Source: Escherichia coli (GTDB lineage Bacteria > Pseudomonadota > Gammaproteobacteria > Enterobacterales > Enterobacteriaceae). Taken from it: a DNA stretch of 64,000 nucleotides. Where the stretch lies: the NCBI RefSeq assembly GCF_001677475.2, contig NZ_CP015229.1, one strand, 5' to 3'. Positions within the stretch are counted from its first letter, which is position 1. Each line of letters opens with the position of its first letter. Shown here piece after piece: positions 4,362 to 64,000 of the stretch. Made by a program: the position numbers and the translations under genes. The notes below the pieces were generated by a model. That model saw only the letters and a list, made by a program, of their open reading frames with translations, searched no databases and was not told the origin of the DNA.

Positions 4362-5348
4362 ATGTCGCACGTAGAGTTACAACCGGGTTTTGACTTTCAG
4401 CAAGCAGGTAAAGAAGTCCTGGCGATTGAACGTGAATGCCTGGCGGAGCTTGATCAATACATCAATCAGAATTTCACACTTGCCTGTGAAAAGATGTTCT
4501 GGTGTAAAGGGAAAGTTGTCGTCATGGGGATGGGGAAATCGGGGCATATTGGGCGAAAAATGGCGGCAACGTTTGCCAGCACCGGTACACCTTCATTTTT
4601 TGTCCATCCTGGTGAAGCAGCGCATGGTGATTTAGGCATGGTCACCCCACAGGATGTGGTGATTGCTATCTCTAACTCAGGTGAATCCAGCGAAATCACG
4701 GCCTTAATTCCAGTGCTTAAGCGTCTTCACGTACCGTTAATCTGCATCACCGGTCGCCCGGAGAGCAGCATGGCGCGCGCCGCAGATGTGCATCTGTGTG
4801 TTAAAGTAGCGAAAGAAGCCTGTCCGTTAGGGCTGGCACCAACCAGCAGCACCACCGCCACGCTGGTTATGGGCGATGCCCTCGCTGTCGCGCTGTTAAA
4901 AGCACGCGGCTTTACTGCTGAAGATTTTGCGCTCTCACACCCAGGCGGCGCACTGGGTCGTAAACTTCTGCTGCGCGTAAACGATATTATGCATACGGGC
5001 GATGAGATCCCGCATGTTAAAAAAACGGCCAGTCTGCGTGACGCATTGCTGGAAGTTACCCGCAAAAATCTTGGTATGACTGTCATTTGCGATGACAATA
5101 TGATGATTGAAGGCATCTTTACCGACGGTGATTTACGCCGTGTCTTCGATATGGGCGTGGATGTTCGTCAGTTAAGTATTGCCGATGTGATGACGCCGGG
5201 GGGAATACGTGTGCGCCCTGGCATTCTGGCCGTTGAGGCACTGAACTTAATGCAGTCCCGCCATATCACCTCCGTGATGGTTGCCGATGGCGACCATTTA
5301 CTCGGTGTGTTACATATGCATGATTTACTGCGTGCAGGCGTAGTGTAA
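4362..5348 (+). CDS. kdsD: KdsD, D-arabinose 5-phosphate isomerase (SIS + CBS domains)
   Basis: ORF track 4341..5348(+) trimmed to MSHVELQPGFDF... (328 aa). Confidence 0.93.
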   Translation: MSHVELQPGFDFQQAGKEVLAIERECLAELDQYINQNFTLACEKMFWCKGKVVVMGMGKSGHIGRKMAATFASTGTPSFFVHPGEAAHGDLGMVTPQDVVIAISNSGESSEITALIPVLKRLHVPLICITGRPESSMARAADVHLCVKVAKEACPLGLAPTSSTTATLVMGDALAVALLKARGFTAEDFALSHPGGALGRKLLLRVNDIMHTGDEIPHVKKTASLRDALLEVTRKNLGMTVICDDNMMIEGIFTDGDLRRVFDMGVDVRQLSIADVMTPGGIRVRPGILAVEALNLMQSRHITSVMVADGDHLLGVLHMHDLLRAGVV

Positions 5349-5368
5349 AGATTCAAGGATAAACAATA

Positions 5369-5935
5369 ATGAGCAAAGCAGGTGCGTCGCTTGCGACCTG
5401 TTACGGCCCTGTCAGCGCCGACGTTATAGCAAAAGCAGAGAACATTCGTCTGCTGATCCTCGACGTTGATGGCGTACTGTCAGATGGCCTGATTTATATG
5501 GGCAATAACGGCGAAGAGCTGAAAGCGTTCAATGTTCGTGACGGTTATGGCATTCGTTGTGCGCTCACCTCTGATATTGAAGTCGCTATCATTACCGGGC
5601 GAAAGGCTAAACTGGTAGAAGATCGTTGTGCCACATTGGGGATCACTCACTTGTATCAGGGGCAGTCAAACAAACTGATCGCCTTTAGCGATCTGCTGGA
5701 AAAACTGGCGATTGCCCCGGAAAATGTGGCCTATGTCGGCGATGATCTCATCGACTGGCCGGTAATGGAAAAAGTGGGTTTAAGCGTCGCCGTGGCCGAT
5801 GCGCATCCACTGTTGATCCCGCGCGCCGATTACGTGACGCGCATTGCTGGCGGTCGTGGCGCAGTGCGAGAAGTTTGCGACTTATTACTCCTGGCGCAGG
5901 GCAAACTGGATGAAGCCAAAGGGCAATCGATATGA
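5369..5935 (+). CDS. kdsC: KdsC, Kdo 8-phosphate phosphatase (HAD family)
   Basis: ORF track 5369..5935(+), 188 aa; DVDGVL HAD motif. Confidence 0.93.
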   Translation: MSKAGASLATCYGPVSADVIAKAENIRLLILDVDGVLSDGLIYMGNNGEELKAFNVRDGYGIRCALTSDIEVAIITGRKAKLVEDRCATLGITHLYQGQSNKLIAFSDLLEKLAIAPENVAYVGDDLIDWPVMEKVGLSVAVADAHPLLIPRADYVTRIAGGRGAVREVCDLLLLAQGKLDEAKGQSI

Positions 5936-6507
5936 GTAAAGCCAGACGTTGGGTTATCATTGTGCTATCACTGGCGGTTCTGGTGATGATCGGCATTAAT
6001 ATGGCCGAAAAAGACGATACCGCCCAGGTGGTCGTCAACAACAATGATCCCACCTATAAAAGCGAGCATACGGACACGCTCGTCTATAACCCAGAAGGGG
6101 CACTAAGCTATCGATTGATTGCTCAACACGTTGAATATTATTCCGATCAGGCCGTTTCGTGGTTTACGCAGCCGGTACTTACCACGTTTGATAAGGATAA
6201 AATCCCGACATGGTCCGTAAAAGCAGATAAAGCCAAGCTGACCAATGACCGGATGCTCTATTTATATGGACACGTTGAAGTCAACGCACTTGTGCCGGAC
6301 TCTCAACTTCGCAGAATCACGACGGATAACGCGCAGATCAATCTGGTGACGCAGGATGTTACCTCTGAAGACCTCGTCACGTTATACGGAACAACATTTA
6401 ACTCCAGCGGTCTGAAAATGCGCGGCAACTTACGCAGCAAGAACGCCGAGCTGATTGAAAAGGTTAGAACATCCTATGAAATTCAAAACAAACAAACTCA
6501 GCCTTAA
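5932..6507 (+). CDS. lptC: LptC, LPS transport protein
   Basis: ORF track 5932..6507(+), 191 aa with N-terminal membrane anchor; start overlaps kdsC stop. Confidence 0.92.
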   Translation: MSKARRWVIIVLSLAVLVMIGINMAEKDDTAQVVVNNNDPTYKSEHTDTLVYNPEGALSYRLIAQHVEYYSDQAVSWFTQPVLTTFDKDKIPTWSVKADKAKLTNDRMLYLYGHVEVNALVPDSQLRRITTDNAQINLVTQDVTSEDLVTLYGTTFNSSGLKMRGNLRSKNAELIEKVRTSYEIQNKQTQP

Positions 6508-7033
6508 TCTTGTGCTTGCCAGCTCACTTCTGGCCGCCAGCATTCCGGCATTTGCCGTAACCGGAGACACTGATCAGCCGATCCACATTGAATCGGACCA
6601 GCAATCTCTTGATATGCAAGGCAACGTGGTTACCTTTACCGGTAATGTCATCGTCACCCAGGGCACCATCAAAATTAATGCCGACAAAGTGGTCGTTACC
6701 CGTCCGGGCGGCGAACAAGGTAAAGAAGTGATTGACGGCTACGGTAAACCGGCAACGTTCTACCAGATGCAGGACAACGGTAAACCCGTTGAAGGTCACG
6801 CTTCCCAGATGCACTACGAACTGGCAAAAGATTTTGTCGTTCTGACGGGTAATGCTTATCTGCAGCAGGTCGATAGCAACATTAAGGGCGATAAGATCAC
6901 TTACCTGGTGAAAGAGCAGAAAATGCAGGCTTTCAGCGACAAAGGCAAGCGCGTAACCACCGTTCTGGTGCCATCGCAGCTGCAGGACAAAAACAATAAA
7001 GGCCAGACCCCGGCACAGAAGAAGGGTAATTAA
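6476..7033 (+). CDS. lptA: LptA, periplasmic LPS transport protein
   Basis: ORF track 6455..7033(+) trimmed to MKFKTNKLSLNLVL... (185 aa, signal peptide); overlaps the lptC 3' end. Confidence 0.92.
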   Translation: MKFKTNKLSLNLVLASSLLAASIPAFAVTGDTDQPIHIESDQQSLDMQGNVVTFTGNVIVTQGTIKINADKVVVTRPGGEQGKEVIDGYGKPATFYQMQDNGKPVEGHASQMHYELAKDFVVLTGNAYLQQVDSNIKGDKITYLVKEQKMQAFSDKGKRVTTVLVPSQLQDKNNKGQTPAQKKGN

Positions 7034-7039
7034 TTCGTT

Positions 7040-7765
7040 ATGGCAACATTAACTGCAAAGAACCTTGCAAAAGCCTATAAAGGCCGTCGCGTGGTAGAAG
7101 ACGTCAGCCTGACCGTCAACTCCGGGGAAATTGTCGGCCTGCTGGGGCCAAACGGTGCCGGTAAGACCACCACTTTCTATATGGTTGTAGGCATTGTGCC
7201 GCGCGATGCGGGCAACATCATTATTGATGATGACGATATCAGTTTGCTGCCTCTGCATGCACGCGCGCGCCGCGGTATCGGCTATCTGCCACAGGAAGCC
7301 TCCATTTTCCGTCGCCTCAGCGTTTACGATAACCTGATGGCGGTACTGCAAATTCGTGACGACTTGTCTGCTGAACAACGTGAAGACCGCGCGAACGAGC
7401 TGATGGAAGAGTTTCACATTGAGCACCTGCGTGACAGCATGGGGCAGTCACTCTCCGGGGGTGAACGTCGCCGTGTAGAAATTGCCCGCGCACTGGCTGC
7501 GAATCCGAAATTTATTCTGCTCGACGAACCGTTTGCCGGGGTTGACCCGATCTCGGTTATCGACATTAAACGCATCATTGAGCACCTGCGCGACAGCGGC
7601 CTGGGCGTGCTGATCACTGACCACAACGTGCGTGAAACACTGGCGGTTTGTGAACGCGCTTATATCGTCAGTCAGGGGCATTTGATCGCCCACGGCACGC
7701 CTACAGAAATCTTACAAGACGAACACGTTAAGCGTGTATACCTTGGGGAAGACTTCAGACTCTGA
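7040..7765 (+). CDS. lptB: LptB, LPS export ABC ATPase
   Basis: ORF track 7040..7765(+), 241 aa; Walker A (GPNGAGKTT). Confidence 0.95.
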
Positions 7766-7812
7766 TAGGGTAGAAGTTTGCGACGTTTTAGCAGGAGAGT
7801 ACGATTCTGAAC

Positions 7813-9246
7813 ATGAAGCAAGGTTTGCAACTCAGGCTTAGCCAACAACTGGCGATGACGCCACAGCTCCAACAGGCAATTCGTCTGTTGCAGTTGTCGA
7901 CGCTGGAACTTCAGCAGGAGCTACAGCAGGCGCTGGAGAGTAATCCGCTGCTTGAGCAAATCGACACTCATGAAGAAATCGACACCCGCGAAACGCAAGA
8001 CAGTGAAACACTGGACACCGCCGACGCGCTCGAACAAAAAGAGATGCCGGAAGAGCTGCCGCTCGATGCCAGCTGGGACACCATTTACACCGCTGGTACA
8101 CCATCCGGCACCAGCGGTGACTACATTGACGACGAGCTGCCGGTATACCAGGGCGAAACGACGCAGACCTTGCAGGATTACCTGATGTGGCAGGTCGAGC
8201 TGACACCGTTTTCCGATACTGACCGCGCTATTGCTACCTCTATCGTCGATGCCGTTGATGACACCGGTTATCTGACTGTACCGCTGGAAGATATTCTCGA
8301 AAGTATGGGCGATGAAGAGATCGACATCGACGAAGTTGAAGCCGTCCTTAAGCGGATCCAACGGTTTGATCCGGTCGGTGTGGCGGCAAAAGATCTGCGT
8401 GACTGCCTGCTGATCCAACTCTCCCAATTCGATAAAACCACGCCGTGGCTGGAAGAGGCCAGACTGATTATTAGCGATCATCTCGATCTGTTAGCCAATC
8501 ACGACTTCCGCACTTTAATGCGCGTCACGCGTCTGAAAGAAGATGTGCTGAAAGAAGCCGTCAATCTGATCCAGTCGCTCGATCCGCGCCCCGGGCAGTC
8601 GATCCAGACTGGCGAACCTGAGTATGTCATTCCAGATGTGCTGGTGCGTAAGCATAACGGTCACTGGACGGTAGAACTCAACAGTGACAGCATTCCGCGT
8701 CTGCAAATCAACCAGCACTACGCCTCGATGTGCAATAACGCGCGCAACGATGGTGACAACCAGTTTATCCGCAGCAATCTGCAGGATGCCAAATGGTTGA
8801 TCAAGAGTCTGGAAAGCCGTAACGATACGCTCCTGCGCGTGAGTCGCTGTATCGTTGAACAGCAGCAAGCCTTCTTTGAGCAAGGTGAAGAATATATGAA
8901 ACCGATGGTACTGGCCGATATCGCCCAGGCTGTCGAAATGCATGAATCGACGATATCTCGCGTGACCACGCAAAAATACCTGCATAGTCCACGAGGCATT
9001 TTTGAACTGAAGTATTTCTTTTCCAGTCACGTCAATACCGAGGGCGGCGGCGAAGCTTCCTCCACGGCGATTCGTGCGCTGGTGAAGAAATTAATCGCGG
9101 CGGAAAACCCAGCGAAACCGTTGAGCGACAGCAAGTTAACCTCTTTGCTGTCGGAACAAGGTATCATGGTGGCACGCCGCACTGTTGCGAAGTACCGAGA
9201 GTCTTTATCCATTCCGCCGTCAAACCAGCGTAAACAGCTCGTTTGA
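7813..9246 (+). CDS. rpoN: RNA polymerase sigma-54 factor
   Basis: ORF track 7813..9246(+), 477 aa; Gln/Leu-rich N-terminus and C-terminal RpoN box ([10 protein letters not shown]). Confidence 0.96.
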
Positions 9247-10210: not shown

Positions 10211-11065
10211 ATGGTACTGATGATCGTCAGCGGACGTTCAGGTTCAGGTAAATCTGTCGCCCTGCGTGCGCTGGAAGATATGGGTTTTTACTGCGTGGAT
10301 AACCTTCCCGTAGTGTTGTTACCCGATCTGGCTCGAACTCTGGCCGATCGCGAGATTTCTGCCGCCGTCAGCATTGATGTTCGTAATATGCCGGAGTCAC
10401 CAGAAATATTCGAACAGGCGATGAGTAACCTGCCTGACGCTTTCTCACCGCAACTCCTGTTCCTGGATGCCGACCGTAATACCTTAATTCGTCGTTACAG
10501 TGACACGCGCCGACTGCATCCGCTTTCCAGCAAAAACCTGTCGCTGGAAAGTGCTATCGACAAAGAAAGCGATTTGCTGGAGCCTCTGCGTTCGCGAGCG
10601 GATCTGATTGTCGATACCTCAGAAATGTCCGTTCACGAGCTGGCTGAAATGCTGCGTACCCGTCTGCTGGGTAAACGTGAACGCGAACTGACAATGGTCT
10701 TTGAGTCTTTCGGCTTCAAACACGGTATCCCTATCGATGCAGATTACGTCTTTGACGTGCGCTTCTTGCCGAACCCGCACTGGGATCCGAAACTGCGTCC
10801 AATGACAGGTCTTGATAAGCCCGTCGCCGCGTTCCTCGACCGCCACACAGAAGTACACAATTTTATCTACCAGACGCGAAGCTATCTTGAGCTATGGTTA
10901 CCTATGCTGGAAACCAACAACCGTAGCTACCTGACGGTTGCCATTGGTTGTACCGGCGGGAAGCACCGTTCGGTGTATATTGCAGAGCAACTGGCAGACT
11001 ACTTCCGCTCGCGCGGTAAAAACGTCCAGTCACGCCATCGTACGCTGGAAAAACGTAAACCATGA
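10211..11065 (+). CDS. rapZ: RapZ (YhbJ), RNase adaptor protein with P-loop
   Basis: ORF track 10211..11065(+), 284 aa; Walker A GRSGSGKS. Confidence 0.94.
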
Positions 11066-11546: not shown

Positions 11547-12179
11547 ATGATTCGCTTATCTGAACAAAGTCCCCTGGGCACCGGAAGACATCGGAAATGT
11601 TATGCGCATCCGGAAGATGCCCAACGCTGTATCAAGATTGTCTACCATCGTGGCGATGGTGGCGATAAAGAGATCCGCCGTGAGTTAAAGTATTACGCGC
11701 ATCTTGGTCGCCGGTTAAAAGACTGGAGTGGAATACCGCGCTATCACGGTACCGTTGAGACGGATTGCGGAACCGGTTATGTCTACGATGTGATTGCAGA
11801 TTTTGACGGCAAGCCCTCCATTACGCTGACCGAATTTGCTGAACAATGCCGTTACGAAGAAGACATTGCACAACTGCGCCAGTTACTGAAACAGCTGAAG
11901 CGTTATTTGCAGGATAACCGTATCGTGACGATGTCGCTGAAGCCGCAGAATATCCTCTGTCACCGCATCAGTGAGTCAGAGGTTATCCCCGTCGTCTGCG
12001 ACAACATTGGTGAAAGCACATTGATTCCACTGGCGACCTGGTCGAAGTGGTGTTGTCTGCGTAAGCAAGAGCGGTTATGGAAACGATTTATCGCCCAACC
12101 GGCGCTGGCTATTGCCCTGCAGAAAGATCTGCAACCTCGTGAAAGCAAAACGCTGGCCCTCACTTCGCGCGAAGCTTAA
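11547..12179 (+). CDS. yrbL: YrbL, PhoP-regulated protein of unknown function
   Basis: ORF track 11490..12179(+) trimmed to [11 protein letters not shown]... (210 aa); synteny between npr and mtgA. Confidence 0.85.
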
Positions 12180-12904
12180 TCCAGCTGGTGTTGTTGCATA
12201 AACGACTCACCGCCTAACTGATACATCTGCCGTAAAATCCACGCCTGACGGCTACGCACGTAGCCCGATGGCGCGGAGACTTTGAAACGAAGTGGATTAG
12301 GTAATACAGCTGCCAGTAATGCAGCTTCCGACCGGGTAAGTTTGCTCGCGGGTTTGTGGAAATAACGTTGTGCCGCAGCTTCGACGCCAAACACACCGTC
12401 GCCAAATTCGGCGATATTCAGGTAAACCGTCAGGATACGCTTTTTGCTCCAGACCGTTTCTATCCCCAGCGTTAATCCGGCTTCTAGCCCTTTTCGAACC
12501 CAGCTACGCCCATCCCATAAAAAGAGATTTTTGGCCGTCTGCTGAGAAATCGTTGATGCACCGCGAATACGGTTTTCATTGCGCTCGTTGTGCGCCAGGG
12601 CTTTCTCAATGGAAGCGACATCAAAGCCCCAGTGCTCAGGAAATTTCTGATCTTCTGCGGCAATCACCGCCAGTCCCATCCACGGCGAGATTTGATCCAT
12701 ACTGACCCAGTCAGAATGTGCCACGTAACGAAAATTGCCATGCAGCCAGGCGCTGACCTGTCGCTCGACCATTACCGCTGAGAAAGGAACAGGCGCAACG
12801 CTAAACAACGCAATGCCCCCGCCCCAGAAAACGGCGAGGACAACCATTAACCGCAGAAGAAAACGGCGAACGAAACTAAACACCGTTAAGCGGCTTTTAC
12901 TCAT
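12176..12904 (-). CDS. mtgA: MtgA, monofunctional peptidoglycan glycosyltransferase
   Basis: ORF track 12176..12904(-), 242 aa; N-terminal TM segment and transglycosylase motifs. Confidence 0.93.
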
Positions 12905-13671: not shown

Positions 13672-13792
13672 GTGCGGCCTGAAAAACAGTGCTGTGCCCT
13701 TGTAACTCATCATAATAATTTACGGCGCAGCCAAGATTTCCCTGGTGTTGGCGCAGTATTCGCGCACCCCGGTCTAGCCGGGGTCATTTTTT
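13672..13792 (+). ncRNA. arcZ: ArcZ (SraH/RyhA) Hfq-dependent small RNA
   Basis: Sequence GTGCGGCCTGAAAAACAGTGCTGTGCCCTTGTAACTCATCATAATAATTTACGGCGCAGCCAAGATTTCCCTGGTGTTGGCGCAGTATTCGCGCACCCCGGTCTAGCCGGGGTCATTTTTT recognised from memory as ArcZ; ends in a GC-rich hairpin plus T-run; convergent with arcB and overlaps its 3' end. Confidence 0.85.
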
Positions 13793-17145: not shown

Positions 17146-17726
17146 AATCTGATAGACCGCGCCTTGAAAAGAGGCCAAAGCCTGCCATTTTTAGCTCAAT
17201 TCGGCGATGACCTGGATCAATCGTCCCGGCCTGCTTTTATCAACTGCATAATCAATCAAAATTACCGAAATTTCATGCATAATCACATAAATCACTTTTG
17301 CTTATCTTGTGTCAGATTTTTTTATCTCCTTATGGATTTTAGGCAAAAACAGTAGCATGAAACGTCATTACCAATTAAGGCAGTATAAAATGCTGGCTTT
17401 CTCGTCAGTTCAAGGCAGGATAAGGGTTAACACGCCTTTATGACAGTCAGGAATTGGCTGTTTCTCTAACGACGCCCCTTTTAGCCTTAATTAGAAAATC
17501 TATTTTAATTTCAGTCAATTAATAAAGAATTTTGCGCTAAAGCACATTTCTGTACCAATAAGCTTGCCATTTGACCTGTATCAGCTTTCCCGATAAGTTG
17601 GAAATCCGCTGGAAGCTTTCTGGATGAGCAGCCTGCTCATCATATTTATGCAGTAATTGAGATCCCCTCTTCACCGTATTAACCGATGCGAAAAGGACAA
17701 CAAGGGGGCGAATGCGAGGCGCGCGT

Positions 17727-20700
17727 ATGACACGCAAACCCCGTCGCCATGCTCTTTCTGTGCCCGTGCGCAGCGGTTCGGAAGTGGGGTTCCCGCAGAG
17801 CCTGGGGGAGGTTCACGATATGTTGTACGATAAATCCCTTGAGAGGGATAACTGTGGTTTCGGCCTGATCGCCCACATAGAAGGCGAACCTAGCCACAAG
17901 GTAGTGCGTACTGCAATACACGCACTGGCCCGCATGCAGCACCGTGGCGCGATTCTCGCCGATGGTAAAACCGGTGACGGTTGCGGCTTGCTGTTACAAA
18001 AACCGGATCGCTTTTTTCGCATCGTTGCGCAGGAGCGCGGCTGGCGTTTAGCGAAAAACTACGCCGTCGGGATGCTATTCCTGAATAAAGATCCTGAACT
18101 CGCCGCTGCCGCACGCCGCATCGTTGAAGAAGAGCTGCAACGCGAAACCTTGTCGATTGTGGGCTGGCGTGATGTCCCCACTAACGAAGGCGTGTTGGGT
18201 GAAATCGCCCTCTCCTCTCTGCCACGCATTGAGCAAATTTTTGTGAACGCCCCGGCAGGCTGGCGTCCGCGCGATATGGAGCGCCGTCTGTTTATCGCCC
18301 GCCGCCGCATTGAAAAGCGTCTCGAAGCCGACAAAGACTTCTACGTCTGTAGCCTGTCGAATCTGGTGAACATCTATAAAGGTCTGTGTATGCCGGCGGA
18401 TCTGCCGCGCTTTTATCTGGATCTTGCGGACCTGCGTCTGGAATCGGCCATTTGCTTGTTCCACCAGCGCTTCTCCACGAACACCGTACCGCGCTGGCCG
18501 CTGGCGCAGCCGTTCCGCTATCTGGCGCATAACGGTGAAATCAACACCATCACCGGTAACCGCCAATGGGCGCGTGCGCGTACCTATAAATTCCAGACGC
18601 CGCTTATCCCTGATCTGCACGACGCCGCACCGTTCGTCAACGAAACCGGCTCTGACTCCAGTTCGATGGATAACATGCTGGAACTGCTGCTGGCAGGCGG
18701 GATGGATATCATCCGCGCCATGCGCCTATTAGTACCACCCGCCTGGCAGAACAACCCGGATATGGACCCGGAACTGCGTGCCTTCTTTGACTTTAACTCC
18801 ATGCATATGGAGCCGTGGGATGGCCCGGCGGGCATCGTGATGTCCGATGGTCGTTTTGCCGCCTGTAACCTCGACCGTAACGGTCTGCGTCCGGCGCGCT
18901 ACGTCATCACCAAAGATAAGCTCATCACCTGCGCCTCTGAAGTCGGTATCTGGGATTATCAGCCTGACGAAGTGGTCGAAAAAGGCCGCGTCGGGCCAGG
19001 CGAACTGATGGTTATCGACACCCGCAGTGGGCGTATTCTGCACTCGGCAGAAACCGATGACGATCTGAAAAGCCGCCACCCTTATAAAGAGTGGATGGAG
19101 AAAAACGTCCGCCGCCTGGTACCGTTTGAAGATCTGCCCGATGAAGAAGTGGGTAGCCGCGAACTGGACGACGACACGCTTGCCAGCTACCAGAAACAGT
19201 TTAACTACAGCGCGGAAGAGCTGGACTCCGTAATTCGCGTACTGGGCGAAAACGGTCAGGAAGCGGTCGGATCGATGGGCGATGATACCCCATTCGCCGT
19301 GCTCTCCAGTCAGCCGCGCATTATTTACGACTACTTCCGCCAGCAGTTTGCTCAGGTGACTAACCCGCCAATCGACCCGCTGCGTGAAGCGCATGTTATG
19401 TCGCTCGCCACCAGCATTGGTCGTGAAATGAACGTCTTCTGTGAAGCAGAGGGCCAGGCGCACCGTTTAAGCTTTAAATCGCCGATTCTGCTCTACTCCG
19501 ATTTCAAACAGCTCACGACGATGAAAGAGGAGCACTACCGCGCAGATACGCTGGATATCACCTTTGACGTCACTAAAACCACGCTCGAAGCGACAGTCAA
19601 AGAGCTGTGCGACAAAGCCGAAAAAATGGTACGTAGCGGCACCGTGTTGCTGGTGCTCTCCGACCGGAATATCGCTAAAGATCGCCTGCCGGTTCCGGCT
19701 CCGATGGCGGTTGGCGCGATCCAGACCCGTCTGGTCGATCAAAGCCTGCGCTGCGATGCCAACATCATCGTCGAAACCGCCAGCGCCCGCGATCCGCACC
19801 ATTTCGCCGTGTTGCTGGGCTTCGGTGCGACGGCTATTTATCCGTACCTTGCCTATGAAACGCTGGGCCGTCTGGTAGACACCCACGCGATTGCCAAAGA
19901 TTATCGTACCGTGATGTTGAACTACCGTAACGGCATCAACAAAGGCTTGTACAAAATCATGTCCAAAATGGGCATCTCCACCATCGCCTCTTACCGCTGC
20001 TCGAAACTGTTTGAAGCGGTCGGTCTGCACGATGATGTAGTGGGCCTGTGCTTCCAGGGAGCGGTCAGTCGCATTGGTGGGGCGAGCTTTGAAGACTTCC
20101 AGCAGGATCTGCTGAATCTCTCGAAACGTGCCTGGCTGGCGCGTAAGCCCATCAGCCAGGGCGGCCTGCTGAAATATGTGCACGGCGGCGAATACCACGC
20201 CTACAACCCGGACGTGGTGCGCACGCTGCAACAGGCGGTACAGAGCGGCGAGTATAGCGACTATCAGGAATACGCGAAGCTGGTTAATGAGCGTCCGGCA
20301 ACCACGCTACGCGATCTGCTGGCAATTACGCCGGGTGAAAACGCGGTCAACATTGCTGATGTTGAACCGGCAAGCGAACTGTTTAAACGCTTCGATACCG
20401 CTGCGATGTCTATCGGCGCGTTAAGCCCGGAAGCCCACGAGGCGCTGGCTGAAGCGATGAACAGCATCGGCGGTAACTCGAACTCCGGTGAAGGCGGTGA
20501 AGACCCGGCGCGCTACGGCACTAACAAAGTGTCGCGCATCAAGCAGGTGGCGTCAGGTCGCTTCGGTGTTACTCCGGCGTACCTGGTCAATGCTGACGTC
20601 ATTCAGATTAAAGTCGCCCAGGGCGCGAAGCCGGGCGAAGGCGGTCAGTTGCCAGGTGATAAAGTCACGCCTTACATCGCCAAACTGCGCTATTCGGTGC

Positions 20701-23711: not shown

Positions 23712-23720
23712 GCTCTGTCC

Positions 23721-23753
23721 CAGCGCCGCCTCCTCAGAAAAGAGTCGGCGCTG
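23721..23753 (+). terminator. Putative gltBD terminator hairpin (approximate coordinates)
   Basis: Inverted repeat cagcgccg...cggcgctg starting about 10 bp after the gltD stop; the following T-run is weak. Confidence 0.4.
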
Positions 23754-23894
23754 AAATTCTCCTTTCTTTCTGGAAAGCGCCTCGCATAATCTGAAGAAAA
23801 CCAATGTAATACGCTCATCTGGATTGTTACCGGTAGATGCCCGGCGTATAGCTGATTCCATTATTCAACGCAGCGCCATATAAAGGGACAGATA

Positions 23895-25022
23895 ATGGAA
23901 TCGCTCTCAGAGAGAACCTCAACAGGCTACCAGCAAATCCACGACGGTATTATTCATCTGGTCGATAGCGCACGGACGGAAACGGTACGTAGCGTTAACG
24001 CGCTGATGACCGCGACATACTGGGAAATTGGCCGACGAATTGTCGAATTTGAACAAGGTGGCGAGGCCAGGGCTGCGTATGGTGCGCAGCTAATCAAGCG
24101 ACTATCAAAGGATTTAAGTCTAAGGTATAAGCGTGGGTTCTCTGCAAAAAACTTACGCCAAATGAGGCTTTTTTACCTCTTTTTTCAACATGTTGAAATT
24201 CGCCAGACAGTGTCTGGCGAATTAACACCATTGGGAATTCCGCAGACACCATCTGCAGAATTCCCATCGGCAAAGATTTGGCAGACGCTGTCTGCCAAAT
24301 CTTTCCCCCTGCCCTGGTCCACCTACGTCCGTTTACTTTCCGTTAAAAACGCTGACGCCCGCAGCTTTTATGAAAAAGAGACGCTCCGCTGTGGCTAGTC
24401 TGTTCGCCAGCTAGAACGGCAAATTGCGACCCAATTTTATGAGCGAACACTACTGTCACATGACAAATCAGCCATGCTGCAACAACATGCTCCTGCCGAG
24501 ACGCATATTCTTCCGCAACAGGCGATACGCGATCCTTTTGTGCTTGAATTTCTGGAGTTGAAAGATGAATACTCAGAATCCGATTTTGAGGAGGCGCTGA
24601 TCAACCACCTGATGGATTTCATGCTGGAACTTGGGGATGATTTTGCCTTTGTTGGTCGACAGCGAAGGTTACGCATTGATGACAACTGGTTTCGTGTCGA
24701 TCTGCTGTTTTTCCACCGCCGTTTACGCTGCCTGCTAATCGTCGATCTAAAAGTGGGCAAATTCAGCTATAGCGATGCCGGACAGATGAATATGTATCTC
24801 AACTACGCCAAAGAGCACTGGACGCTACCGGATGAAAATCCGCCCATCGGTCTGGTTCTCTGTGCAGAGAAAGGAGTCGGAGAAGCGCATTATGCACTGG
24901 CTGGTTTGCCTAACACCGTTCTGGCGAGTGAATATAAGATGCAACTACCTGATGAAAAACGACTCGCGGATGAACTCGTTCGAACACAGGCGGTGTTAGA
25001 GGAAGGCTATAGACGCCGTTAA
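23895..25022 (+). pseudogene. yhcG: yhcG (DUF1016 / PD-(D/E)xK nuclease-like family) interrupted by one in-frame TAG codon
   Basis: Track ORFs 23895..24398 (167 aa) and 24474..25022 (182 aa) are in the same frame. The only interruption is TAG at 24396..24398 (sequence tgt ggc TAG tct gtt cgc). Read-through length is about 375 aa, the size I recall for intact K-12 YhcG. Confidence 0.8.
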
Positions 25023-25081: not shown

Positions 25082-26414
<1,333 letters not shown>

Positions 26415-26418
<4 letters not shown>

Positions 26419-52114: not shown

Positions 52115-53584
52115 TTACATCATTACGACGTCAAACTGCTCCTGGTTATAGAGCGGTTCAATTTGTACTTTAACCTGTTTGCCAACGAAAATTTCCACTT
52201 CCGCCAGCGAGTGTGACTCTTCGCCTTTCAAGGCTTCAGCTACTGCCGGAGAAGCATAGACCAGGAAACGGTCGGAGTCGTAAGCATGGTGGACACGAAC
52301 AATCTCGCGCATGATTTCATAGCATACCGTTTCCACGGTTTTCACCGTTCCGCGACCGTGGCAGGTTGGGCATTCGTTACACAGTACGTGCTCAATGCTT
52401 TCGCGGGTGCGTTTACGCGTCATCTCCACCAGCCCCAGCGCCGAAAAACCATTAACGCTGGTTTTCACCCGGTCTTTGCTCAACGCCTGCTCTAGCGAAT
52501 GCAGCACGCGGCGGCGGTGATCTTCATTATTCATATCGATGAAATCAATAATGATAATCCCGCCCAGATTACGCAACCGTAACTGGCGAGCGATAGCCTG
52601 CGTCGCTTCAATATTGGTATTGAAAATGGTGTCGTCCAGATTGCGATGACCGACAAACGCCCCGGTATTGATGTCCACGGTGGTCATCGCTTCGGTCTGG
52701 TCGATAATCAGATAGCCACCAGATTTCAGTTCTACTTTGCGTTCCAGCGCTCGCTGGATTTCGTTTTCGACATCAAAGAGATCGAAAATCGGCTGGCGTC
52801 CGGTGTAATGCTCCAGCTTGCTGGTCATCTCGGGAATGTACTCCGAGGTGAACTCAAGTAATGCTTCGTAAGTCAGGCGTGAGTCAACGCGAATGCGGTC
52901 CAGTTCGGCGTCGGCGAAATCACGCAGAACACGCTGAGCCAGCGCCAGTTCGCCGTACAGCTGATAACGGGTCTGCGGGCGTTTTTTACGCTCCATAACT
53001 TTGGTCCAGACGCGTTTCAGATAAGCGGCATCGGAGGCCAGTTCAGCCTCGCCAACCCCTTCCGCTGCGGTACGGATGATAAACCCGCCCTGCTCGTCGC
53101 AATACTCTGCGACCACTTTTTTCAAGCGTTCACGTTCTGATTCGCTTTCAATACGTTGGGAAACCCCAACGTGAGAAGCCCCTGGCATAAAGACCAGATA
53201 GCGAGAAGGCAGCGTGATATCGGTGGTCAGGCGCGCACCCTTAGTGCCAAGCGGATCTTTCACCACCTGCACCATCAGATCTTGCCCCTGACGGACCAGC
53301 TCCGAGATATCGCGTACCGTGAATTGCTTTTGTTCTTCACCCGCCACACATTCGGTGTGCGGCATGATGTCGGATGCATGAAGAAACGCGGCTTTATCCA
53401 GCCCAATATCTACAAAAGCCGCCTGCATACCCGGAAGTACACGACTTACACGACCCTTGTAGATATTGCCTACTATTCCGCGTCGCGCCTCACGTTCAAT
53501 ATGAATTTCCTGCAGAATACCGCCATCAATATACGCCACTCGCGTTTCCGAAGGCGTTACGTTTACCAACAATTCAGCCGTCAT
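52115..53584 (-). CDS. rng: RNase G
   Basis: ORF track 52115..53602(-) trimmed to [13 protein letters not shown]... (489 aa); S1 domain N-terminus. Confidence 0.94.
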
Positions 53585-60247: not shown

Positions 60248-61224
60248 CCATTTAGCAAGGATTAATAAGAGAGGGAACTCATTTTGAAATCATTATTCAA
60301 TCGGTTAACGGGAAAAGCGGTTAGCCGGACAGCTTTCGTCGAACATCTTGGTCATGAAGTTGTACAACATCATCCAAACTGGAAAGTCATGATTTCGACA
60401 GACCATACATTGATGCGCATTGAAACTCCACTAAACAGCCATTATTGATACGCCTCCGTCGCCTGTTAGGTTTATGGTGCTTTGCCTGGGCGACGCTACG
60501 CTTAACCTGTTACTGATTTCTGGTACCATGGGGTGAATAATCTGATTTTATTTGCCTACAAATTAACCACTCGAACGTATTTGATGCTGAGCATTGTCAG
60601 ACGGTTGATTTTGCGTGCTTTAGCATTCACATCTATCCAGACGATGAAGTGAAAATTGCGTAATCCTCAGCAACCGCTGCGTAATGTCGTCTATCTTGTC
60701 GCGATCCTGGCATCCCTACATTATTTGTGGTCTGTGAAGATTATCTCATTGCAGCCCCTCATCTTCGCAGGGCTGGCTTTACAGCTTTTAGCCTTACGTT
60801 ATAAGAAGTTCCGTCGATGATGGCGCTAATTTCGTGAGTTGTGCGGCTTGTTGCAAATTACACGGTGTTGAAGGTTATTTACATGTTAGCTGTTGATTAT
60901 CTTCCCTGATAAGACCAGTATTTAGCTGCCAATTGCTACGAAATCGTTATAATGTGCGACCTCGTTCTCCCTGACGCAGTTTTTGCGCTGCGGAAAAGGT
61001 GACATTGGCGCAACGAAGGTATATTTTGTTTTTTGCCGGAGGATAGCAGCAGATCGCTGCACAATGTCCGTCAAGTCTAACATTGACACTCTGGGGCAAA
61101 ATAGACCGGCGTCCCGGCCTGCTGGAATTTATCGCTATGCATACAGCTGTCGGGGCATACGCTTTACAGACGGCGGTGAAACGCCTGTCACAATCACACT
61201 AAACAAAGAGTACGGAACCCACTC

Positions 61225-61705: not shown

Positions 61706-63055
61706 ATGCTGGATAAAATTGTTATTGCCAACCGCGGCGAGATTGCATTGCGTATTCTTCGTGCCTGTAAAGAACTGGGCATCAAGACTGTCGCTGTGCA
61801 CTCCAGCGCGGATCGCGATCTAAAACACGTATTACTGGCAGATGAAACGGTCTGTATCGGCCCTGCTCCGTCAGTAAAAAGTTATCTGAACATCCCGGCA
61901 ATCATCAGCGCCGCTGAAATCACCGGCGCAGTAGCAATCCATCCGGGTTACGGCTTCCTCTCCGAGAACGCCAACTTTGCCGAGCAGGTTGAACGCTCCG
62001 GCTTTATCTTCATCGGCCCGAAAGCAGAAACCATTCGCCTGATGGGCGACAAAGTATCCGCAATCGCGGCGATGAAAAAAGCGGGCGTCCCTTGCGTACC
62101 GGGTTCTGACGGCCCGCTGGGCGACGATATGGATAAAAACCGTGCCATTGCTAAACGCATTGGTTATCCGGTGATTATCAAAGCCTCCGGCGGCGGCGGT
62201 GGTCGCGGTATGCGCGTAGTGCGCGGCGACGCTGAACTGGCACAATCCATCTCCATGACCCGTGCGGAAGCGAAAGCTGCTTTCAGCAACGATATGGTTT
62301 ACATGGAGAAATACCTGGAAAATCCTCGCCACGTCGAGATTCAGGTACTGGCTGACGGTCAGGGCAACGCTATCTATCTGGCGGAACGTGACTGCTCCAT
62401 GCAGCGCCGCCACCAGAAAGTGGTCGAAGAAGCACCAGCACCGGGCATTACCCCGGAACTGCGTCGCTACATCGGCGAACGTTGCGCTAAAGCGTGTGTT
62501 GATATCGGCTATCGCGGTGCAGGTACTTTCGAGTTCCTGTTCGAAAACGGCGAGTTCTATTTCATCGAAATGAACACCCGTATTCAGGTAGAACACCCGG
62601 TTACAGAAATGATCACCGGCGTTGACCTGATCAAAGAACAGCTGCGTATCGCTGCCGGTCAACCGCTGTCGATCAAGCAAGAAGAAGTTCACGTTCGCGG
62701 CCATGCGGTGGAATGTCGTATCAACGCCGAAGATCCGAACACCTTCCTGCCAAGTCCGGGCAAAATCACCCGTTTCCACGCACCTGGCGGTTTTGGCGTG
62801 CGTTGGGAGTCTCATATCTACGCGGGCTACACCGTACCGCCGTACTATGACTCAATGATCGGTAAGCTGATTTGCTACGGTGAAAACCGTGATGTGGCGA
62901 TTGCCCGCATGAAGAATGCGCTGCAGGAGCTGATCATCGACGGTATCAAAACCAACGTTGATCTGCAGATCCGCATCATGAATGACGAGAACTTCCAGCA
63001 TGGTGGCACTAACATCCACTATCTGGAGAAAAAACTCGGTCTTCAGGAAAAATAA
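61706..63055 (+). CDS. accC: AccC, biotin carboxylase
   Basis: ORF track 61667..63055(+) trimmed to [14 protein letters not shown]... (449 aa). Confidence 0.97.
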
Positions 63056-63101
63056 TTTGTGACGCGCGGTGTTTTCATCGCGCTTAGCAAAGAACGTAAT
63101 C

Positions 63102-63136
63102 AACGCCGGGCCTGTTAACGCTGCCCGGCGTTTTTA
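63102..63136 (+). terminator. accBC rho-independent terminator (approximate coordinates)
   Basis: aacgccgggcctgttaacgctgcccggcgtt hairpin followed by tttttatt, about 45 bp after the accC stop. Confidence 0.65.
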
Positions 63137-63146
63137 TTGCCGTTAG

Positions 63147-64000
63147 CTAACGGTAGCCTGCAATTTCCGCTTTCAACGCGCTCATTTCAGCATCGCCATC
63201 AACAATTCCCAGCTCAAAGCAGTATTTCTTTGTTTCCCCTGGCTCTATAAAGGGCAGACGCCCCTGCGCTCGTTCTTTATCACGACCGTCAGGAAAACTA
63301 TTGCTGACCTCCAGCCCCATAACATATTCACCCGCGCCTAAATTTTTCCACTGGATAAAGTTGGGTAGCTGCATGGTGTCGAATTTCTCGTAAATTCCCC
63401 ACCCCAGTTCAGCGTTCACCAGCGCAATTTTACTCATCCCCTGACTGTCGCTATTCAAGGTGAGATAGTAAACCTGCTCGTCAAAACCGGGCTGTGGGGT
63501 ACAAATCTCCAGATGACTGGTTAACCCTTCCGCCGCATGCGGAGTTCGTGGCGTTACGCTTTTAGCCGACAGCAAGATTTCTGCCTGTGGCGATAATAAA
63601 GGCCAGCCGTAATTAAAGTGATAAAGAATTTGCAGCGGCTGGCGGGTGAAACCATGATTAGTCACCTCGTCTTCAATGCGCAGCACATTTTCGCCATAAC
63701 GGCAGCGAATGGTCCTTTCCAGCGTCAGATTTTCACCGAACAATCGCGTTTCCCGTACTTTGCCATTGATGACAAATTCAATGCCGTCGTCGGTCCGTTC
63801 TGTGCGATACCCCACCTCTTCTGCTGGAGTCGCAGCCAAACGCCCATGTAACCCCAGCGTTTCTCCTTCATCCTCACAGGGCGTGCCAATGTAGCTAAGT
63901 CCGCAGGTAGTCAGTAACCCCGCGTAAAAGCTACGTAAAAACCCGTTGCCCTGAGACTCGAAAAAAGCGGGGGCGACAATGCCGTTGGGGGTGATAAAAG
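63147..64000 (-). CDS. Hypothetical protein, possibly galactose-mutarotase-like/DUF4432-type; partial, with the 5' end beyond the window
   Basis: Track ORF 63147..63839(-) is the tail of a longer frame: I translated the minus strand by hand through to position 64000 and found no stop. Not a K-12 gene at this position (K-12 has yhdT/panF on the plus strand after accC). Family assignment is from motif impression only. Confidence 0.6.
   Translation of the reverse strand, partial: FITPNGIVAPAFFESQGNGFLRSFYAGLLTTCGLSYIGTPCEDEGETLGLHGRLAATPAEEVGYRTERTDDGIEFVINGKVRETRLFGENLTLERTIRCRYGENVLRIEDEVTNHGFTRQPLQILYHFNYGWPLLSPQAEILLSAKSVTPRTPHAAEGLTSHLEICTPQPGFDEQVYYLTLNSDSQGMSKIALVNAELGWGIYEKFDTMQLPNFIQWKNLGAGEYVMGLEVSNSFPDGRDKERAQGRLPFIEPGETKKYCFELGIVDGDAEMSALKAEIAGYR

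Follow-up and report, generated by a model that had tools for sequence, protein, structure and literature searches.

The gene overlaps in a 64,000-nucleotide stretch of Escherichia coli DNA (hereafter the window, with positions counted from its first nucleotide) are very probably ordinary compact junctions of well-characterised E. coli operons. The operons involved are mlaFEDCB, yrbG-kdsDC-lptCAB, rpoN-hpf-ptsN-rapZ-npr, elbB-mtgA, nanATEK-nanQ and mreBCD-yhdE-rng. We are similarly confident of the explanation as a whole, in which the junctions are normal, the pairs whose stop and start codons interlock (spacings of -4 or -1) would be read by reinitiation, and lptA, which overlaps lptC by 32 nt, would be initiated de novo. 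The junctions and the 32-nt overlap are already known or routine. A preliminary description of the window had listed seven overlaps, named the genes and suggested translational coupling in several operons. Here we report which parts of that description stand, and argue that the length of an overlap matters for how it should be read.

Gene content and boundaries

The region 5300-7900 has a match in 5,425 of 5,426 complete E. coli genomes, with identity of up to 99.7%, and the stretch from mlaB to accC is colinear with E. coli strain EC974 except for small indels. CDS boundaries were obtained by carrying RefSeq coordinates onto the window with blastn, after which every junction was computed. The transferred CDSs are full length and their start and stop codons match, the sole exception being yhcG, which has an internal stop. 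Judged by this transfer and by the colinearity, the gene names given in the preliminary description are correct, as is its statement that the overlaps fit known operon structures.

The interval 5932-7033 consists of lptC and lptA, with kdsC upstream and lptB downstream, all on the + strand. The kdsC gene (KDO-8-phosphate phosphatase) occupies 5369-5935 and its TGA stop overlaps the lptC ATG. The lptC gene (5932-6507) encodes 191 aa, and residues 1-191 are 100% identical to chain C of PDB 6S8N, an LptB2FGC structure. The lptA gene (6476-7033) encodes 185 aa, including a signal peptide of about 27 aa, and residues 27-185 are identical to PDB 2R19, which starts at residue 27. The lptB gene (7040-7765) lies 6 nt 3′ of lptA without overlap, a gap of the same size being found in 79/80 species. 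The gene order yrbG-kdsD-kdsC-lptC-lptA-lptB, then rpoN, is found in the window with near-identical sequence.

The comparison between species used a scan of one genome per species, which gave 80 loci with LptA 80-100% identical; the relatives obtained all had at least 80% identity and all belong to the Enterobacteriaceae.

Overlapping gene pairs

All seven overlaps of the preliminary description are present at the sizes it gave, as computed from the transferred coordinates. On the + strand these are kdsC/lptC (4 nt, 5932-5935, an ATGA at -4 spacing preceded by an SD-like AAAGGG), lptC/lptA (32 nt, 6476-6507, out of frame) and rapZ/npr (4 nt, 11062-11065, ATGA). On the - strand they are elbB/mtgA (4 nt, 12901-12904, ATGA), nanE/nanK (4 nt, 26415-26418, ATGA), yhdE/rng (11 nt, 53574-53584) and mreC/mreD (1 nt, 54664, TAGTG), where mreD starts with GTG behind a strong SD, GGGAGGG. 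The list was nevertheless incomplete. It left out mlaC/mlaB (1 nt, position 352, TAATG) and nanK/nanQ (4 nt, 25543-25546, ATGA), both on the - strand, as well as the convergent yrbL/mtgA pair, in which two stop codons overlap by 4 nt (12176-12179, TTAA).

Among the co-directional pairs of the window 9/44 (20%) overlap; the usual figure for prokaryotes is given as about 15% (PMC6728339). Stop and start codons overlap at -4 or -1 in kdsC/lptC, rapZ/npr, elbB/mtgA, nanE/nanK, nanK/nanQ, mreC/mreD and mlaC/mlaB, but not in lptC/lptA (-32) or yhdE/rng (-11). From the coordinates, the downstream gene is in frame +2 at the -4 and -1 junctions and in frame +1 at the -11 and -32 overlaps. Exactly -4 or -1 spacing is seen in 7 of the 23 closely spaced pairs (P ~6e-6 under a crude uniform null from -35 to +25). 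This excess is a well-known genome-wide bias and no peculiarity of the window (PMC12548453, PMC10666635).

Coupling at the short overlaps

The preliminary description inferred translational coupling from spacing and nothing else. By analogy with pairs that have been studied elsewhere, such coupling is plausible for the -4 and -1 junctions. Huber et al. found native E. coli pairs with -4 or -1 spacing to be coupled in four of five cases, the exception being bioBF (PMC6728339); the five tested pairs all come from outside the window. The optimum for coupling lies between -4 and +3, and coupling drops faster with a growing overlap than with a growing gap (PMC12548453). Native E. coli pairs likewise display a strong distance dependence of coupling (PMC10666635). 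A full-text literature search returned no experiment on the pairs of the window and no paper combining lptC, lptA and 'translational coupling', and the genes, looked up by name and by b-number, do not occur in the supplements of a kasugamycin translatome study (PMC5230787).

At the seven -4 and -1 junctions (ATGA, TAATG and TAGTG) the most likely mechanism would be termination-reinitiation, in which the ribosome that ends the upstream gene restarts on the adjacent start codon. The motifs are the same as those of coupled short overlaps (-4 NTGA and -1 TRRTG; Huber et al. 2019 and 2023, Brown and Wade 2025), and several of the downstream genes in the window have weak SDs, as is often the case in coupled pairs. 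The two longer overlaps, lptC/lptA (-32) and yhdE/rng (-11), differ from coupled pairs in lying outside the spacing range of efficient coupling (PMC12548453). Reinitiation would count most where the downstream SD is weak, i.e. at mlaB and npr (-3.3 kcal/mol each) and at mtgA, where it is very weak (-2.2 kcal/mol); the SDs of mreD, nanK and nanQ are strong. Raw folding energies from -30 to +30, taken without a shuffle control, are -19.0 kcal/mol for mreD, -15.9 for nanQ and -13.8 for mtgA, the start region of which is folded. The yhdE/rng overlap would be an intermediate case, and the SD of rng itself is good.

A rather unlikely alternative is that the overlaps are neutral products of genome compaction and stop-codon drift, with no role in expression. 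Since ATGA needs a single base beyond the ATG, -4 junctions arise easily, and a gene that has lost its stop codon extends into its neighbour up to the next stop. A recent review attributes the abundance of -4 junctions, as the likely cause, to the ease with which they evolve (PMC12548453), and bioBF is an E. coli pair with a short overlap and no coupling, although the other four of the five tested pairs are coupled (PMC6728339). At the lptC/lptA junction, lptC ends 12-15 nt sooner in 5 species, in which LptC is shorter by 4-5 residues and the lptA start is unchanged; the exact length of this overlap is thus inessential. Known partners are encoded by some of the pairs only, lptC/lptA and mreC/mreD, and the products of kdsC/lptC, elbB/mtgA and yhdE/rng are not known to be partners.

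Two patterns of conservation speak against complete neutrality. The TATGA at the kdsC/lptC junction is invariant in 79/79 distinct Enterobacteriaceae sequences, despite freely varying synonymous sites nearby, and the overlap measures 4 nt in 77 of the 79 loci in which kdsC was found. The second is the change C6493T, which is silent in lptA (AAC to AAT), turns Q188 of LptC into a stop codon and is present in just 2/80 species, in contrast to ordinary twofold synonymous sites near 6493 that vary freely. Its rarity is a hint of mild selection acting either on the RNA or on the tail of LptC, although codon preference could also account for it.

The lptC/lptA overlap

The 32-nt overlap between lptC and lptA is stated outright in the literature (PMC4986956). 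Of the 80 species, 75 have an overlap of exactly 32 nt and the other 5 one of 17-20 nt. Within 6476-6507 lptA is read in frame +1 relative to lptC, and the same nucleotides encode LptC's C-terminal tail as well as the residues with which the LptA signal peptide begins. Residue 3 of LptA alternates between F and S among species, and, judged by variation of this kind, both the LptC tail and the first signal-peptide residues appear to tolerate change. We also considered an LptC-LptA fusion made by programmed frameshifting and rejected it by inspection only: read in the lptC frame, the overlap, ATGAAATTCAAAACAAACAAACTCAGCCTTAA, contains no heptamer of the X XXY YYZ type, and a prfB-like +1 site made of a stop codon and an SD is likewise absent. 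Such a fusion is also disfavoured in that the LptA signal peptide would end up inside the protein.

Of the listed junctions this is the one at which termination-reinitiation is least likely, and we regard coupling here as unlikely for four reasons: coupling is absent at -25 nt in published distance series, no hairpin masks the start codon, lptAB has internal promoters and lptA has a conserved initiation region of its own. On the first, the systematic series of Tian and Salis found no coupling at -25 nt, as reviewed in PMC12548453; the series was built from synthetic constructs, and the review also emphasises the influence of sequence context on coupling. On the second, the segment 6426-6525 has an MFE of -15.1 kcal/mol against a shuffle mean of -15.11 (z = 0.00), which led us to reject coupling by the unfolding of a hairpin over the ribosome-binding site. 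The coupling claim of the preliminary description is therefore one that we retain, as plausible, for the -4 and -1 junctions and consider doubtful for lptC/lptA.

The internal promoters are known from published work. The lpt genes are transcribed in the six-cistron yrbG operon and from additional internal promoters, among them the minor promoters lptAp1 (sigma-E dependent) and lptAp2, which lie upstream of lptA within lptC (PMC4986956). In araBp-lptC depletion strains, where lptC is untranscribed, lptAB is still expressed from a promoter within lptC (PMC4072712, PMC8727689), which means that lptA can be translated on transcripts without any lptC translation. Expression of lptAB from the internal promoters only is lower (PMC8727689) and possibly insufficient under critical conditions (PMC4986956), and for this reason some input from lptC-translating ribosomes to lptA on the main yrbGp transcript is possible.

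A scan with the sigma-E consensus GGAACTT-N16-TCAAA/TCTGA (PMC1312014) gave one good match, a candidate sigma-E-type promoter on the + strand at 6388-6415 (GGAACAA-N16-TCTGA, with CGGTCTGAAAA). This site may be the published lptAp1. A sigma-70 consensus scan of 5300-7100 yielded no + strand promoter, the sites being no more numerous than in shuffles, and neither yhbN nor lptA is mentioned in Rhodius 2006.

The lptA initiation region itself is A-rich and unstructured. Its SD, AAAGG at 6459-6463, is weak (-3.4 kcal/mol) and poorly spaced, 11-12 nt 5′ of the ATG. Variation among 79 lptC sequences is uneven along the gene. Over most of its length the synonymous-codon entropy stays near 1.2-1.4 bits, but the final three bins of 10 codons have only 0.75, 0.33 and 0.45 bits, with 0.33 in codons 171-180; at third positions the gene body has about 1.2-1.5 bits, and 6456-6470 no more than 0.08. 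The stretch of suppressed synonymous variation covers some 80 nt on the + strand (6396-6475) and contains the lptA translation-initiation region. Since it lies 5′ of the overlap, a second reading frame is no explanation, and the constraint acts at the nucleotide level. The conservation fits an initiation region, 5′ UTR and promoter elements for lptA embedded in lptC, and the extent of the suppressed variation is as expected for promoters or ribosome-binding sites that lie within an upstream CDS. Promoter elements, rather than the ribosome-binding site, could underlie it.

From these observations we infer that translation of lptA most likely begins de novo at a region of its own, unstructured, A-rich and with a weak SD, in the 3′ end of lptC, and that this would occur on long and internal transcripts alike. 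The same region would have to serve the lptAB transcripts made from lptAp1 and lptAp2. Ribosomes translating lptC would at most modulate lptA initiation and would not be required for it.

One feature counts against de novo initiation: a weak, badly spaced SD is the look expected of a gene that needs help from upstream ribosomes. It would suit an explanation in which every overlap of the list, the 32-nt one included, exists for translational coupling, with lptA reached by back-scanning over about 29 nt. LptC and LptA are also parts of one Lpt transport complex (PMC4986956), the subunits of complexes are enriched among overlapping pairs (PMC10666635), and a length of exactly 32 nt is kept in most species. 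We give this explanation little credence. Coupling is absent in systematic constructs with a shorter overlap than this one, and a growing overlap lowers its efficiency faster than a growing gap does (PMC12548453); internal promoters give lptAB expression even when lptC is not translated; upstream ribosomes would find no inhibitory structure to open at lptA; and the overlap is shortened to 17-20 nt in 5 species that keep the same lptA start.

Equally doubtful is a dedicated module for controlling the LptC:LptA ratio, made up of the 32-nt overlap together with the conserved stretch of about 80 nt in the 3′ end of lptC. Here, ribosomes translating lptC on the yrbGp transcript would gate the weak lptA start, by occlusion or by hand-over, and internal transcripts driven by sigma-E would bypass this gate during LPS stress. 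The rarity of C6493T, a change that truncates LptC and leaves LptA as it is, may be read as a hint of such a module. De novo initiation of lptA within an otherwise normal junction is the explanation that we prefer.

Start sites

The size of an overlap depends on the start codon chosen for the downstream gene. All 80 species have the lptA ATG (6476). Just one other in-frame start is available, TTG 6455, where the longest ORF begins, and an in-frame TGA separates this TTG from the ATG in 6/80 species. As the TTG is blocked by a stop in these species, ATG 6476 is the sole lptA start common to all, and we reject TTG 6455. The product that begins at the ATG, MKFKTNKLSLNLVLASSLLAASIPAFA/VTG, resembles a normal signal peptide, and the positive charge of its N-region, MKFKTNK, is normal for one. 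The solved LptA structures (2R19 and others) begin at residue 27 or 28, which fits removal of the signal peptide. Given this removal, the initiating Met is missing from mature LptA, and N-terminal proteomics is therefore unable to settle the LptA start.

For rng (- strand) the longest ORF begins with GTG 53602, which would give an overlap of 29 nt with yhdE; the annotated ATG at 53584 gives 11 nt. This ATG has a well-placed SD, AAAAGGGAT, and is the one used by RefSeq. N-terminal sequencing by Briant et al. in 2003 reportedly put the start of RNase G at the second of two candidate sites.

That some overlaps are artefacts of a wrongly annotated start, with lptA beginning downstream or at TTG 6455 and rng at GTG 53602, is highly improbable: for both genes the longest ORF does exceed the annotated gene, but the evidence above favours the annotated ATGs, and either alternative upstream start would make the overlap longer rather than abolish it. 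The annotated start sites in the window are correct. The trimmed starts of the preliminary description agree with RefSeq throughout, and that of lptA has the added backing of the 80-species comparison.

Relation to known systems and implications

The genes, their order and the 32-nt overlap are the same as in the yrbG-kdsD-kdsC-lptC-lptA-lptB operon of E. coli described by Sperandeo, Martorana, Polissi, Deho and co-workers (PMC4986956). There is no difference of substance from this yrbG-lptB operon; the window comes from a non-K-12 strain.

For quality control of annotations the outcome is simple: the trimmed starts are sound, and hence the overlaps should not be flagged as errors. Furthermore, the length of an overlap guides its reading. 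A spacing of -4 or -1 is a fair predictor of translational coupling; an overlap of 32 nt is not. For the biology of LPS transport, lptC harbours promoters as well as the conserved initiation region of lptA, so that editing its 3′ end can have consequences for lptA and lptB, both essential, an effect that researchers in this field already allow for.

Gene content of the window

In the window, gltD has yhcG directly 3' of it (junction region 23712-23894). In K-12 this position is occupied by gltF and the fimbrial-like genes yhcA-yhcF, together with an IS5 element. As gltD adjoins yhcG instead, the window comes from a non-K-12 lineage, such as that of the annotated E. coli strain EC974.

The yhcG gene itself (23895-25022, + strand) encodes a PDDEXK nuclease domain protein, which is 375 aa long in EC974. 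The window copy is interrupted at codon 168 by one premature stop and is therefore seen as two ORFs (23895-24398 and 24474-25022). In consequence, yhcG is probably a pseudogene in the window strain.

The window also differs from EC974 past accC. There EC974 carries yhdT-panF, whereas the window has a gene on the - strand for a DUF4432 protein (63147-64000, annotated as 'aldose 1-epimerase family') that extends beyond the window end. At least 80% of a query spanning the accC-DUF4432 junction (62900-64000) is matched by 1,421 of 5,426 E. coli genomes.

The sole Rfam match at the gathering threshold within the window is the ArcZ sRNA gene (13672-13779, + strand; 120.8 bits), which lies in the elbB-arcB intergenic region. 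Two stretches without annotated CDS are unusually long, one of 977 nt from acuI to accB (60248-61224) and one of 674 nt from yhcC to gltB (17146-17819). The locus-tag numbers of the EC974 RefSeq annotation jump at both.

Variation around the lptC reading frame

Among the Enterobacteriaceae loci compared, that of Citrobacter koseri NCTC10786 has an apparent end of the kdsC reading frame about 130 nt upstream of lptC, and the TATGA sequence at the kdsC/lptC junction is itself intact. This early end could be a truncation or frameshift of kdsC, or else an alignment artefact.

At the other end of lptC, the 32 nt shared with lptA (6476-6507) include a position, 6493, where a C-to-T change is silent for lptA and would shorten LptC by four residues. 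Synonymous sites close by vary freely, yet just two of the 80 species of Enterobacteriaceae carry the change. Its rarity may reflect mild selection that acts on the tail of LptC or on the RNA.
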